From contig JBFOMH010000013.1 in the NCBI GenBank assembly GCA_040830765.1, forward strand, positions 64,001-128,000: DNA of 64,000 bases, read 5' to 3'. Source of the stretch: Puniceicoccaceae bacterium. Lineage in GTDB: Bacteria > Verrucomicrobiota > Verrucomicrobiia > Opitutales > Oceanipulchritudinaceae. Shown here one piece after another: positions 11,865-30,413 of this stretch; positions within the stretch are counted from its first letter, which is position 1; each line of letters starts with the position of its first letter. The notes below the pieces were generated by a model. It worked only from the letters and a program-made list of their open reading frames with translations, had not been told where the DNA came from and did no database searches. The position numbers and the translations under genes are program-made.

Positions 11865-11941
11865 TGGTGGGAGATACTGGAGTTGAACCAGTGACCTCAT
11901 GCGTGTCATGCATGCGCTCTAACCAACTGAGCTAATCCCCC
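11865..11941 (-). tRNA. tRNA-Val(GAC), CCA encoded
   Basis: Reverse complement GGGGGATTAGCTCAGTTGGTTAGAGCGCATGCATGACACGCATGAGGTCACTGGTTCAACTCCAGTATCTCCCACCA; cloverleaf folds, anticodon GAC in a CATGC/GCATG stem. Confidence 0.97.
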
Positions 11942-25828: not shown

Positions 25829-27718
25829 TTATTTTCGCAAGGAAGGATAAGCGGCGAGAATCCGGTCGAGCTCATCCTTGGCAAAGGACTGGTTGGGATC
25901 GATCTCCAATGCCTTCCGTAAATACTCCACGGCTTCCTTGAAGCGATCCTCCTTGGCCAACAATGATCCGACGAAATAATGCGGCCAGGGGGCATGAGGC
26001 AGGAGAGTACAAATCTCCTTTCCCTGATTGATGGCTTCAGGCAATGCACCCGTCATCTCAAAAAATTGCGCATAGTTCCACCTGATCAGAGTGTCTTCCG
26101 GAGACCGGCGGAGCGCATCCTCATAAGATTTTTGATCTCTCGCAGGCGTAGCCGATGTCGTTCGCGAATCCACTTCAAGCATCCTGTCCTTACAGTATTG
26201 GACATTTGAAGGGTGACTGGACTGGGAAATAAAGGGGGCCACAGAAATGCGCCCGAGGGCAACATCCCATACGCGCTTCTGGTCCCATAAGGTAATCGCC
26301 AATTGGCGAACACAGGCTTGGTATTCATACTCAGACGTGTTCTCCCTGTGATTCTCTACGATCGACGGTGGTAGTAATTCGCCGACCCTGCCGGCAAGGA
26401 TTCGAGCCAGGCGATAGTTCCCCTCGAGCGTGAAATGTACGTGCTCGTAGAACAGTTCTTTTCCCGGAATACCGTAAGACGCCTGATTCGCCAACGCCTT
26501 TTCCGCATCTACACCGAGCACCGAAGCATCGACGTGCTTGGCCGCCGCGTCCATGATAATCCGGTTGATCCTCGTGTCCGCTCGAACGGCAAGCGCATCA
26601 AGATCCCTTGCCCGGTTGAAGGCCTCCATCGCAAGATCATTGTCCCCCAGCTTCAGGTAACATGATCCAATACGGAACTGAAGCTCCGCAAAACCAGCAT
26701 CAATCGCCGCCGCCTTCAGGTAATCATCCAACGCGGCCTCAAGCGAGCCGGTCTTCTCCAGTTTAAGTCCATTTTGATAAAGGAGATCCCATGCGCTTAG
26801 ATCCTCGCCAGTCAGATGCGTGGAGTGCAATGACGAAAACGGTGAACAATTCCTCAGATTACTAACCACAGTACTCAGGACAACCGGGACACCTGCCTTT
26901 TCGCCTTCCCTGATAATATCCTCAAGATTTCCCCTGAAATTCTCATAGGCTTTCAATCGCGCCGGATCATCATGCCGGAGCAGATTTTTGCTGAACATTT
27001 CGATGCCACCCCACGCCTCTGGTTCACCGGATCCACCCCTTGCTAAGGCAATCATGTCGGCAATGAGCTGACCGATTCGGGTCGACTTCAAAAGGAGGCT
27101 GGTTCTGACAACTGTTAAACCGGGTGCTTTTTCGCCGAATACGGTACCCGCACCGAACGGGCCAACCATCTCGTTGTTGCCCATGTAGATGAGCCACATA
27201 TCACCGTCCCGCTTGGCACAATCCCGGGCAATGGGGAGAATAACGTGTGAATTGATGGCTGTTATGGCGACGGGAACCACTTCAAAATTCGTATCCGGAT
27301 AACGCGTTTCAAGAAGCACCTCCAGAAAGCGGCCCATCCCGAAGGAGGGATCCGGATCTCCATACGCGGCGGATTCCCCGAACAAGAAAATCCTGAAGGT
27401 ACCCTCTGGCTTCTCTGCCGCCATTCGCATCGGAAGTGGCGCACGAGCGAGTGCTGGCGGGAAAAATCGATGGGTGAACTTCCGGTTGGGGATCAAGTAC
27501 TCCTCTCCTTCGATCGTGCTGGGCACAAAGTAATCTGTGTTATACCCGTATCCGGAAAAACGGAGCAACAACTCCAATCCCCCCAGTATAAGGAGTGGCA
27601 TGAATACCATCGCCACAAGACGCATGAGCCAACGACGACCTTCAGGAGCGGAAGGCTGTTGCGAATCCATGCCTTCAGGTGCTTCTCGCAAGTCGCTTTC
27701 GGTAGGAATTAAATTCAT
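25829..27718 (-). CDS. Membrane-anchored SGNH/GDSL-hydrolase-like protein with TPR repeats
   Basis: N-terminal TM; FGESAAYG, YMGNNE, EHVHF blocks; TPR-like helices in the middle and at the C-terminus. Confidence 0.78.
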   Translation of the reverse strand: MNLIPTESDLREAPEGMDSQQPSAPEGRRWLMRLVAMVFMPLLILGGLELLLRFSGYGYNTDYFVPSTIEGEEYLIPNRKFTHRFFPPALARAPLPMRMAAEKPEGTFRIFLFGESAAYGDPDPSFGMGRFLEVLLETRYPDTNFEVVPVAITAINSHVILPIARDCAKRDGDMWLIYMGNNEMVGPFGAGTVFGEKAPGLTVVRTSLLLKSTRIGQLIADMIALARGGSGEPEAWGGIEMFSKNLLRHDDPARLKAYENFRGNLEDIIREGEKAGVPVVLSTVVSNLRNCSPFSSLHSTHLTGEDLSAWDLLYQNGLKLEKTGSLEAALDDYLKAAAIDAGFAELQFRIGSCYLKLGDNDLAMEAFNRARDLDALAVRADTRINRIIMDAAAKHVDASVLGVDAEKALANQASYGIPGKELFYEHVHFTLEGNYRLARILAGRVGELLPPSIVENHRENTSEYEYQACVRQLAITLWDQKRVWDVALGRISVAPFISQSSHPSNVQYCKDRMLEVDSRTTSATPARDQKSYEDALRRSPEDTLIRWNYAQFFEMTGALPEAINQGKEICTLLPHAPWPHYFVGSLLAKEDRFKEAVEYLRKALEIDPNQSFAKDELDRILAAYPSLRK

Positions 27719-27907
27719 GGATTTAAAGGTAGAAAGCTTTTAGACAATGAGGGAATAAATTACTAATGCTTCAATCTTCTCCGTTTGTGCAAGCGTCAAG
27801 TTGTGGTCATCACTACGCTAAGTGGACCACGAGCAGTATGGCCTAAAATCTCTAAACCAACCAGAACAAGTGGTTGGACTCTCACTCTCCGAGCTGACCG
27901 ACTGACA

Positions 27908-28199
27908 ATCGAGTAGCTAGGGGAGATTGCTCTCCCCCGGCTCTCAAACCACCGGACGAACGGGTCACCTATCACGGCGGTTCCTAGCCAGATGCTGTTC
28001 TCAGTTTCATCAGGTAATCGAAGACGGAAACGAGTCCCCATTCGGAGAGGAGGCGCTTTGCCATGGGCTTCCTCCCCACGACCACCTCGCGATGCCGCAG
28101 CTGACCTTCGGCTAATCCTTCCCCTTGCCGGGTGGATAACTGACTTTCATGGGTCTTGCTCATGATCACTGTCAAGCAGTTGCGCCCTGACGGGCGCCC
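27908..28199 (-). mobile_element. Internally deleted group IIC intron (292 nt)
   Basis: 5' GGGCGCCCGTCAGGGCGCA directly after a terminator; DI-like TTAGCCGAAGG...GGAAGCCCATGGCAAA; DV GAACCGCCG...CGGTGGTTT; DVI with GCAA loop, bulged A and terminal GAT. Confidence 0.88.
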
Positions 28200-28201
28200 A
28201 T

Positions 28202-28231
28202 AAAAAAACCCGCCATCCGAAGATGGCGGGT
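28202..28231 (-). terminator. Rho-independent terminator of PEP-CTERM gene 28266-28907 (intron target site)
   Basis: ACCCGCCATC-TTCG-GATGGCGGGT followed by a T tract. Confidence 0.9.
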
Positions 28232-28265
28232 AGTAGAAAAAGACGTTAACTCAAGACCGGAGCGA

Positions 28266-28907
28266 TTACTTGCGCTTCCGGTAGATAACGAATCCGAGAG
28301 CCAACAGGCCACCCAGAAAGGCAAAGGTGGACGGCTCAGGTACGAGGACCAGAGACATGTCATCCAAGTAGAAGCCCTGCGGGTCAACCGCGGTGGAACC
28401 AAACTCGATGAAAATACCGAAAGGTTGGATCTTGGTAGTACCGGCTGGTGCGGTAGCTGTGATCGACATCGGGATCCATTCGCCGACCGGCTGGCCAGGG
28501 AACATCTGGAAGTCAGCACTGGCAGTTCCAGGACCGGCTTCAACAGTACCTAGATCAGTTCCAGCGTCATCGAAATAGCTGATTTGGATACCGCCGAAAA
28601 CCGTACCGGATTCCAAGGCGACGGGCATGTAGCCCCAACCCGTCAAGGTGTAGACTTCACCCGGTGCAGCGGGAAGTGCTTCGAAGGCACCAGGAACGTT
28701 GTCCTTGGTGTAGAACTTGCCGGAATAAGTACCGGTGCGGACGATTTCCGTAGAGAACTCTGCCCCGTTGAAGAATTCCCAGCCGCCAATACCGCCGGCT
28801 GCTCCGGGGGTGTTGGATTCGAATCCGGGATCGGAGAGGAGATTCTGAGCAGTAACTGAACCCCATGCGAGGGTCATCACACATAAGGTGGCGATTACTT
28901 TCTTCAT
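28266..28907 (-). CDS. PEP-CTERM sorting domain protein
   Basis: Signal peptide, NLLSDPGFE...YLDDMSL core, VPEPSTFAFLGG + TM + RKRK tail. Confidence 0.92.
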   Translation of the reverse strand: MKKVIATLCVMTLAWGSVTAQNLLSDPGFESNTPGAAGGIGGWEFFNGAEFSTEIVRTGTYSGKFYTKDNVPGAFEALPAAPGEVYTLTGWGYMPVALESGTVFGGIQISYFDDAGTDLGTVEAGPGTASADFQMFPGQPVGEWIPMSITATAPAGTTKIQPFGIFIEFGSTAVDPQGFYLDDMSLVLVPEPSTFAFLGGLLALGFVIYRKRK

Positions 28908-29041
28908 ATGTCTAATAAGTTGAGGGTTGATTAAGGGTTAAAAAACTTATCGAAATCTTGAATGAGATAAAATCCAACGGCCATCCAACCCCTCTGTCAA
29001 CCCTTATTAGTGCAATTTGGTGCGATTTTTTACGGGGGTAT

Positions 29042-29071
29042 AAAAGGGGCCGCCCCTTTTTGGAGCGGCCC
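29042..29071 (-). terminator. Probable terminator of amt
   Basis: GGGCCGC...GCGGCCC hairpin followed by T4 on the minus strand. Confidence 0.6.
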
Positions 29072-29099
29072 ACAAAGAATTATCTCGATTTGTAAAAAC

Positions 29100-30413
29100 C
29101 TAGATCTCGTAGCCCTGCTCGTCGTGCAGGTTAAGGTCGAGGCCGGAGACCTCAACATCCTCGGAGACCCGCAGGCCGATCGTGAGGTCCAACACCTTGA
29201 GGACGACGAAGGAGACGACCCCGCTCCAGACGATGGTGAAGAGGACGGACAGGGTCTGGGCCCAGACCTGGGCACCGACGCCAACGCCATCCAGCCCAAT
29301 ACCTCCCATGAAGGAGGCGGCACAGAGGCCGGTGAGGATGGCCCCGACAATCCCACCGATGCCGTGGACGCCAAAGACGTCGAGACTGTCATCGTAGCCG
29401 AATTTCTTCTTCACGCTGGTGGCGAAGTAATAGCAGAGGGCGCTGGAGACAAAACCGATAAGGACGGCTCCCAGGGGTCCGGCGGTACCGGAAGCAGGGG
29501 TGATGGCGACCAGGCCGGCAACGGCCCCGGTAATGATACCAAGGACACTCGGCTTCCCGTGTCGCATCCACTCAATAAACATCCAGGTGACGGCAGCGGT
29601 GGCAGTGGCGAAGTGCGTCACGAGGACAGCCATTCCGGCAACGCCGTCAGCCGCCAGCTGGGAACCGCCATTGAACCCGAACCATCCGACCCAAAGCATA
29701 CATCCGCCAATGACGGCCAGTGGCAAACTGTGCGGTTTGATGGGCTCGTTCGGGTAACCGGTCCGCTTGCCGAGCATGATACAGGAGACAAGGCCGGCGA
29801 TCCCGGCGTTGATGTGGACAACCGTGCCGCCCGCGAAGTCAAGGACGCCCCAGTCATGGAAGAGTCCCCCACCCCATGCCATGTGGCAGATTGGGAGATA
29901 GGAAAAAACGGTCCAGACGAGAAGGAAGAGCAGCATGGCGCTGAACTTCATCCGCTCGGCAAAAGCACCCACCACAAGGGCTGGCGTGATAATGATGAAG
30001 GTCATCTGGAACATGACGAAGACCGCCTCCGGAATTGTCCCGCTGACGGTATCGACGGACATGTGCTTCAGGAAAGCGAAGTCGAGCCCCCCGATAAATT
30101 TATTGAGTCCGCCCGGACCTTCCGAGAAGGCCAGGCTGTAACCGAAGGCCAGCCACAGAAGGGACATCACTCCGGCCATGGCCATGCAGTGCATCAGTAC
30201 ACTGAGGACGTTTTTCGCGCGCACGAGGCCGCCGTAGAAGAGCGCCAACCCGGGCAGGGTCATGAAAAGCACAAGGGCACAGGCGACAATCATCCAGGCC
30301 GTGTCGCCAGTGTTGATGGTCGGGATTTCAATCAATTCCTCGGCTTTCAGGGCCGAAGGGAGGGTGGCCAATGCAGTGGCCAGCATTGTTGGTTTCAACA
30401 AGGATTTCATCAT
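29100..30413 (-). CDS. amtB: Ammonium transporter
   Basis: PGLALFYGG, FQMTF, DFAGGTVVH, GWFGFNGGS, YDDSLDVFGVHG motifs. Confidence 0.96.
   Translation of the reverse strand: MMKSLLKPTMLATALATLPSALKAEELIEIPTINTGDTAWMIVACALVLFMTLPGLALFYGGLVRAKNVLSVLMHCMAMAGVMSLLWLAFGYSLAFSEGPGGLNKFIGGLDFAFLKHMSVDTVSGTIPEAVFVMFQMTFIIITPALVVGAFAERMKFSAMLLFLLVWTVFSYLPICHMAWGGGLFHDWGVLDFAGGTVVHINAGIAGLVSCIMLGKRTGYPNEPIKPHSLPLAVIGGCMLWVGWFGFNGGSQLAADGVAGMAVLVTHFATATAAVTWMFIEWMRHGKPSVLGIITGAVAGLVAITPASGTAGPLGAVLIGFVSSALCYYFATSVKKKFGYDDSLDVFGVHGIGGIVGAILTGLCAASFMGGIGLDGVGVGAQVWAQTLSVLFTIVWSGVVSFVVLKVLDLTIGLRVSEDVEVSGLDLNLHDEQGYEI

Follow-up and report, generated by a model that had tools for sequence, protein, structure and literature searches.

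What occupies the 292 nt between the terminator of a gene for a PEP-CTERM protein and a downstream gene for a TPR protein in this genome, and is it still active? The block lies within the analysed window, a stretch of 64,000 nt, and had been read in an earlier note as a group IIC intron from which one deletion had removed the interior. All features listed in that note were found behind the PEP-CTERM terminator, with coordinates correct to within a few bases (Table 1). The analysis described below indicates that the element is very probably an inactive remnant, a fossil, of a class C (terminator-targeting) group II intron. It accounts for an otherwise unannotated 292-nt intergenic block and for a spurious 63-codon open reading frame (ORF). 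Truncated intron copies are well known in bacteria, and the element is therefore an ordinary decayed mobile element and no new kind of ribozyme or mobile element; its value lies mainly in annotation and in the dating of an intron invasion.

Table 1. Coordinates of the intron remnant, its parts and its neighbours (positions in the window).
Feature	Position	Strand	Basis
PEP-CTERM protein gene, 213 aa	28907-28266	minus	ORF; upstream, 5' exon context
Intrinsic terminator	28231-28200	minus	Stem-loop 28231-28208, then T run and A-T; intron target motif
Class C group II intron remnant (putative), whole, 292 nt	28199-27908	minus	Insertion relative to empty sites; ends homologous to intron ends of relatives
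First 147 nt of intron, 5' part of domain I	28199-28053	minus	Homology to G002:C64 and G006:C3
Deletion junction, just 3' of AAAGCGC	28053/28052	minus	Alignment to longer copies; branching contigs
Tail of intron-encoded protein (RT/maturase; best reading), 22 codons and stop	28052-27984	minus	Tail profile, position, frame
Domain V	27983-27946	minus	RF00029 alignment, fold, lineage consensus
Domain VI and 3' end GAU	27945-27908	minus	GCAA loop, bulged A
TPR protein gene, 629 aa	27718-25829	minus	ORF and TPR families; 3' exon side

Genomic context and extent of the insertion

The upstream protein was recognised by a Pfam search (PF07589, residues 189-211 of 213, E 9e-4). The stem of its terminator comprises 10 pairs, 7 of them G-C, with a 4-nt loop, and is directly followed by T7-A-T, so that the element starts 9 bases past the stem. 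At the other end, about 190 nt separate the remnant from the listed start of the TPR gene on the same strand. The TPR orthologs of two relatives, G004 (same genus) and G032 (same family), align to the window protein only from residue 28 on, and the listed ATG is therefore probably not the true start, which would lie later. The spacer between remnant and TPR gene (27625-27907 region) measures about 190 nt or more, as compared with about 40-60 nt in the relatives with an empty site.

The empty site that the earlier note had suggested seeking was found in both of these relatives. G004 carries a near-identical hairpin with a T7-A-T tail, followed after about 40 nt by the TPR ortholog (60% protein identity; 70% DNA identity to window 27523-26825), and is intron-free. 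In G032, a PEP-CTERM gene (31% at the amino acid level) with a similar terminator lies adjacent to the TPR ortholog (58% at the amino acid level), again with no intron between them. Because terminator and TPR ortholog occur in both genomes with nothing between them, the 292-nt stretch is, by comparison with these sites, identified as an insertion. The empty site of G004 ends in an identical T7-A-T; the A-T was therefore assigned to the exon and the 5' boundary placed at 28199, with a start 2 nt upstream as a conceivable alternative. The 3' boundary was taken from an alignment of the lineage, in which the flanks of all copies diverge right past the terminal AT or GT.

A third relative, G010, has an ortholog of the PEP-CTERM gene, with identities of 82.7% (DNA) and 91.5% (protein). 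Its orthologous site retains the same terminator and the first 29 nt of the intron alone (27/29 identical, with GGGCG), after which the sequence is unrelated. Because this site keeps the terminator together with an intron stub, the insertion seems to predate the split between G010 and the window genome and to have decayed further in G010. The PEP-CTERM terminator would thus once have been invaded by a IIC intron in an ancestor common with one sister genome.

Terminator hairpins nearly identical to that of the window (88-93% over 28-33 nt) lie 3' of different PEP-CTERM genes in G004, G009 and G032. The copy in G009 serves a PEP-CTERM gene downstream of the TPR gene; it was rejected as an empty site, since it belongs to this other gene. 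One contig of public run X4 (record 20) holds a similar terminator in another context and represents a paralogous site.

Domains V and VI and assignment to class C

The earlier note had placed domain V (DV) at 27983-27946, followed by a domain VI (DVI) with a GCAA loop, a bulged A and a terminal GAT, and both the predicted fold and the alignment of the lineage agreed with this placement. The lower stem of DV is conserved, with C-G, G-U and C-G pairs; there is a 2-nt bulge, and the upper stem is imperfect and carries a UGAC loop. The 77-nt DV-DVI sequence folds as the two expected hairpins at -40.2 kcal/mol, as compared with a mean of -24.5 (sd 3.15) for shuffled sequences (z -5.0), of which 0/200 folded as well. 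In an RNAalifold consensus of 10 lineage members, 21 pairs were predicted, and the 7 pairs of the DV lower stem are kept in 8-10 of the 10 sequences. Compensatory double changes across the lineage were found at 6 predicted pairs, all of them in DVI. Compared with its kin, the remnant shows two internal mismatches in the DV upper helix, together with the UGAC loop, and one C-A mismatch in DVI.

Covariance models, which the earlier note had named as a check, gave a mixed outcome. RF00029 matches 27982-27908 over its full length with 20.5 bits, below the gathering score of 40; this is the sole match at E<=1 in the 3.99-Mb genome (E 0.19; 0.023 on a short stretch), and the alignment leaves the DV upper helix unaligned. 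At Rfam gathering thresholds, no intron was matched across the whole 64-kb window, where a tRNA gene (11868-11941, minus; 68.1 bits) was the sole match. A cmscan of 901 bases in E-value mode listed a weak match to RF02001, with RF00029 absent, whereas searches of a smaller stretch and of the genome listed RF00029. The 3' 77 nt of the remnant are 84% identical to the DV-DVI beside an intact intron-encoded protein (IEP) of 469 aa in another relative (G011:C277), and that sequence itself scores 31 bits (43.1 bits for G006:C3). Given that a DV-DVI next to an intact IEP reaches just 31 bits, the lineage appears to fit RF00029 poorly in general, and the low score of the remnant is weak evidence of decay.

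The intact IEP of G011:C277 matches the GsI-IIC RT (6ar1) best, end to end (E 5.7e-146), followed by other IIC RTs (7uim, 5hhj, 5hhl); the matches to LtrA (E 2.7e-41) and to the 6me0 maturase (E 9.8e-36) are far weaker. All of the seven 5' ends examined in the lineage (window, G002:C64, G006:C3, G006:C47, G022:C15, G027:C54 and G029:C132) directly follow a hairpin and a T run, in agreement with the statement in the earlier note that class C introns insert behind terminators. By descent, the element is assignable to class C of the group II introns.

Insertion after intrinsic terminators is described as a known habit of IIC introns in passages of PMC1702495 and PMC4424553. Like the full-length IIC introns B.h.I1 of Bacillus halodurans and GsI-IIC, the remnant sits directly after a terminator in sense orientation and has the DV-DVI architecture with a bulged A. 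Unlike them, it misses about 1.6 kb (two thirds of the 5' ribozyme section and the IEP bar 23 codons), starts with GGGCG instead of GUGYG and has an imperfect DV upper helix.

The 5' segment and the deletion junction

A search for a full-length parent, as proposed in the earlier note, returned the full-length-like intron G002:C64, which is 82% identical to window 28205-28053 over 153 nt (E 9e-38); identity of the 5' segment to G006:C3 is 85%, and both G002 and G006 belong to the same genus. The G002:C64 intron starts with GTGCG directly after a groEL terminator and leads on into matches to RF02001 (126.7 bits) and RF01998 (55.8 bits) and then into an RT-like ORF that shows N-terminal RT motifs and runs until the contig end. 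Its section ahead of the ORF measures 428 nt, of which the window covers positions 3-144 only (746-nt G002 query). RF02001 matches the window weakly (17.4 bits, E 0.51) and at model positions 1-40 only. The closing helix of this match (GCCCA with UGGGG) was read as chance, its 3' strand falling in codons of the IEP tail. The rest of RF02001, and RF01998, are unmatched in the remnant, which thus has no complete DI-DVI ribozyme.

The consensus for the 5' end of group II introns is GUGYG. The remnant has GGGCG at this place (28199-28195), compared with GTGCG in G002:C64, G006:C3, G006:C47 and G027:C54; GGGCG is found in G029:C132, too, and may be a tolerated variant.

The earlier note had let a domain-I-like stretch extend to about 28057. 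Its homology was borne out by the alignments, with the junction 4 nt further on, at 28053. Five longer copies (G002:C64, G027:C9, G027:C18, G027:C43 and G006:C159) have the same domain-I sequence past AAAGCGC, or a near variant of it, whereas the window switches to CTCCTC... past 28053/28052. Contigs of four public runs (X1-X4) were aligned to the window. One contig each of X1 and X3 shares the 30 nt 28082-28053 with the window and then diverges, and the 30-base continuation is identical at 30/30 positions to the sequence that follows AAAGCGC in G002:C64. Because these contigs branch at 28053 into the G002:C64 continuation, the deletion endpoint is exact at 28053, and a longer copy of the full-length type is present in the X1 and X3 samples.

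The deleted form itself is bridged by contigs of X2 (27502-28123, 0 differences) and X3 (27962-28134, 1 difference), which come from two studies. Contig cover has gaps at 28124-28311 in X2 and at about 28151-28654 in X3, and X4 covers little. The alignments gave no joint across the element, although contigs do not demonstrate absence. Variant contigs of the 5' part of the intron (28053-28207; X1 and X3) differ from the window at 3/88 and 9/97 letters and have a depth of 15-16, as compared with about 10 for the flanks; a variant contig of the 3' part differs at 4/119 letters and has a depth of 2.6. As variants of both parts occur there, other copies of the intron lineage exist in the same samples.

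No copy with the 28053/28052 junction was found among the 61 genomes searched (19/61 had any match), and the 27-mer across the junction had no exact match in two public collections (genome and metagenome contigs), so that the sibling copies considered in the earlier note did not turn up in these sets. The single deletion with both ends kept that it had postulated agrees with the alignments, in which the first 147 nt are joined to about 23 IEP codons and DV-DVI. A consensus P-K-K/R precedes the IEP-tail motif, and AAGCG(C) may therefore have formed a short repeat that flanked the deletion. The locus provides a clean example of an internal deletion, since an empty site and a full-length relative are both known and branching contigs confirm the junction.

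The probable C-terminal remnant of the intron-encoded protein

The 69 nt between junction and DV read LLSEWGLVSVFDYLMKLRTASG plus a stop codon that directly abuts DV; relatives have 3-36 nt between their IEP stop and DV. A tail profile was built from the last 45 residues of those members of at least 400 aa among 120 homologs of the G011:C277 IEP. With this profile, the remnant frame ranked first among 2016 six-frame peptides of the window (115,583 residues), with a weak score (8.9 bits, E 0.13). In the alignment, KRLLSEWGLVSVFDYLMKLRTAS pairs with the consensus kkyFdklGLislLeklrsfrtal. The best single tails (P0092 and P0038) have 11/24 residues in common with the remnant peptide, and the remnant G006:C47 ends in ...NNDRLLKWGFITPDTLARAAAR. 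Position, frame and motif together, the statistics alone being insufficient, make the C-terminus of the IEP the best reading of the peptide, as the earlier note had proposed. A parent IEP with the exact tail was not found, as the degenerate pattern EWGLVSVFDYL was unmatched in both public contig collections.

In the history that we favour, a full-length intron of about 1.9 kb would have reverse-spliced just past the U tract of the PEP-CTERM terminator, in sense orientation and in an ancestor probably common to G010 but not to G004. A single internal deletion of about 1.6 kb, possibly mediated by the short repeat AAGCGC, would then have brought intron position 147 next to the final 23 or so codons of the RT/maturase; it would have cost the element nearly all of the ORF and, in the 5' ribozyme section, the distal two thirds. 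In the general layout of IIC introns, the section lost here would hold, by position, the rest of DI, DII, DIII and DIVa, and likewise J2/3. The leftover DI stub, DV and DVI could not form a catalytic core and would encode no protein. It follows from the missing core and protein that the remnant would neither splice nor move and would persist as passive intergenic DNA, transcribed at most by read-through.

Decayed copies in related genomes

A composite reference was compared by BLAST with 30 loci and the window (31 sequences). Collinear 5' and 3' pieces were found in 7/31 sequences, namely the window, G022:C15 (about 406 nt), G027:C54 (about 621 nt), G027:C18 (about 328 nt), G029:C116 (about 135 nt), and G027:C9 and G027:C30, both of which are cut by contig ends. 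Further internally deleted copies are G006:C3 (284 nt) and G006:C47 (about 480 nt), and each of the eight other internally deleted copies in relatives has its own junction. The lineage also comprises 5' stubs of 29-83 nt, 3'-only pieces and full-length-like copies. Taken as a whole, it has the appearance of a retroelement in general decay and not of a family of mobile miniature elements.

It is unlikely, though the idea deserves some weight, that the copy in the window was born deleted, i.e. that during retromobility the RT switched at a short repeat, leaving the 3' end of the ORF for domain I, and that a shortened cDNA was integrated. Such an origin would suit the two G006 derivatives, which lie at two terminators with 100% identical ends, the junction of G022:C15, which falls inside the 7-nt repeat ACTGCGG found in both DI and the IEP gene, and the AAGCG(C) that may be common to both sides of the window junction. 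Replication slippage after insertion explains microhomology equally well, however, and deletions confined to the element are expected anyway, with the flanking terminator and gene under selection; moreover, 5'-only and 3'-only fragments exist, too. A deletion after insertion is therefore the reading retained here. Extended to the whole family, the proposal would be that class C introns are often 'born dead' because the RT jumps between short repeats during cDNA synthesis and internally deleted copies with both termini are integrated. A hint in this direction comes from G006, where identical ends combined with different interiors would allow for deletions at or soon after insertion. In this general form it appears quite doubtful; if true, it would cover the element in the window, the two G006 derivatives and the G022 copy with the ACTGCGG repeat, and it would represent a source of miniature copies that is intrinsic to the retroelement and distinct from slow genomic decay.

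Several of the decayed copies have features of their own. The G006 derivatives G006:C3 (L005 1507-1790) and G006:C47 (19548-20030, minus; L051) are two deletion products behind two terminators; their ends are 100% identical over 29 nt at the 5' and 103 nt at the 3' side, and their interiors differ. About 130 IEP codons are left in one of them; the other has retained about 112 nt of DI, together with some 60 nt of filler also present at G002:C132 and G006:C105. The groEL terminator (ORF ending ...GGMGGMM) is occupied by the lineage in two genera, by the full-length-like copy in G002 (G002:C64; L004 1437-1507) and by the 406-nt deleted copy in G022 (G022:C15; L009, minus). In G029:C116 (L069 221-355), 80 nt of the 5' end are fused directly to the last 53 nt, and G027:C18 (L053 1298-1625) has undergone two internal deletions. 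G027:C30 (L066 1-463), cut by the contig start, consists of the later 5' ribozyme section and the first IEP codons, followed by DV. Possibly it represents an ORF-less form whose ribozyme is more complete, although its DVI looks absent or diverged.

Activity of the element

Between the two states offered in the earlier note, a fossil or a non-autonomous miniature element, the evidence clearly favours the former. The reasons are that about two thirds of the 5' ribozyme section are gone, that the 5' end is GGGCG and the DV upper helix imperfect, that the element is single-copy with no RT gene in the assembly, that the orthologous site of G010 has decayed to a 29-nt stub, and that the eight other deleted copies in relatives each differ in junction. 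The assembly (3.99 Mb, 40 contigs, 96.9% complete) contains no match to RVT_1, no match to GIIM over the cut-off and no homolog of the G011:C277 IEP; one sub-threshold GIIM match lies elsewhere in the genome (12.8 bits, C4). Against a fossil speak the strong folding of DV and DVI, the preserved bulged A and the modest decay by point mutation.

Three runs from two studies, including one RNA library, yielded contigs in which the unspliced remnant is contiguous, with 0-1 differences, and the contig of the RNA library (X2) covers the remnant and extends into the TPR gene. Only assembled contigs were used, from which rare spliced RNA would escape. Retention in these samples, the link to the TPR gene and the strong fold would all be expected if the remnant had been co-opted, for example to serve the TPR gene as a leader or regulatory RNA, or to strengthen termination by a second hairpin. 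We consider this very improbable, given that G004 and G032 do without the remnant and G010 has lost all but 29 nt, and that no promoter-like site was found on the minus strand within 27000-29200. Moreover, the strains compared are near-identical, which renders the retention uninformative, and RNA libraries can contain DNA, as may be the case for this one.

A still remoter prospect is that the remnant serves as a non-autonomous miniature intron that still splices or moves because a full-length relative supplies the RT/maturase and ribozyme in trans. Both termini, DV and the DVI with its bulged A are kept, a longer relative occurs in the same samples, and trans-helped ORF-less introns are known from bacteria, as a section of PMC4424553 describes. 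On the other side, the 5' ribozyme section has shrunk from about 428 to 147 nt, the genome holds a single copy and the assembly no RT, the junction was absent from the 61 genomes searched and its exact 27-mer from two public collections, and all eight other deleted copies differ in junction. A helper intron could nevertheless reside in the same cell: these samples contain a longer copy, identical over the 30 nt ahead of the junction, and the assembly consists of 40 contigs, is 96.9% complete and has 2,372 bases withheld. An inactive fossil thus remains the preferred reading of the element.

Truncated or inactivated copies form the majority of bacterial group II introns according to the relevant part of the review by Zimmerly and Semper (PMC4424553), and in 90 Enterobacteriales strains, 111 fragments are given for 55 of 135 distinct copies in the portion of the survey by Leclercq and Cordaux (PMC3522654) considered here. 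The remnant resembles such copies as a non-functional retroelement leftover; it differs from them, as they are described in the relevant portions of PMC4424553 and PMC3522654 and within a literature search that was not exhaustive, in that it has kept both termini and lost sequence from within. According to a passage of PMC4424553, bacteria seldom carry ORF-less introns, and related introns that encode an IEP nearly always accompany them. Similar to such ORF-less introns, which are spliced by an IEP in trans, the remnant is without an IEP and has related introns in the same community; unlike them, with their complete DI-DVI ribozyme, it misses most of DI and everything up to DV, and it is not a member of this group. 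Like the Group III introns of Euglena chloroplasts, as portrayed in part of PMC4424553, it is very short and has terminal intron motifs only. Those introns lie in essential genes, are without DV and are excised, whereas the remnant is intergenic and keeps DV, and its excision was unseen.

The 63-codon frame and other frames across the intron

That the 63-codon ORF (27984-28175) is a real small-protein gene is hardly credible: the frame is open and alike in several copies, with a slight excess of differences at third positions (54/286, 60/287 and 84/283), but it is broken by stops or frameshifts in 2/3 longer copies (G006:C159 and G019:C47), has neither a Pfam match nor a protein homolog, and is accounted for as a chance fusion of ribozyme sequence and IEP tail. 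When residues 24-63 of the 63-aa product were compared with longer proteins, none of the 13 candidates reached E<=1.

In G002:C64 (L004 1507-1938), a frame of 143 codons runs from the first intron base across the ribozyme section and overlaps with the IEP start at ATGA. A conserved ORF across the ribozyme region was considered and rejected because of the stops and frameshifts in G006:C159 and G019:C47. Some database IEPs of the lineage (P0002 and P0004, 493 aa) are 24 residues longer, with the called ORF extending into DV (tails ...GTAVIREPFVRWCESRGG), and the window frame 27796-28041 carries the same DV translation (GTAVIGDPFVRWFESRG) as these tails.
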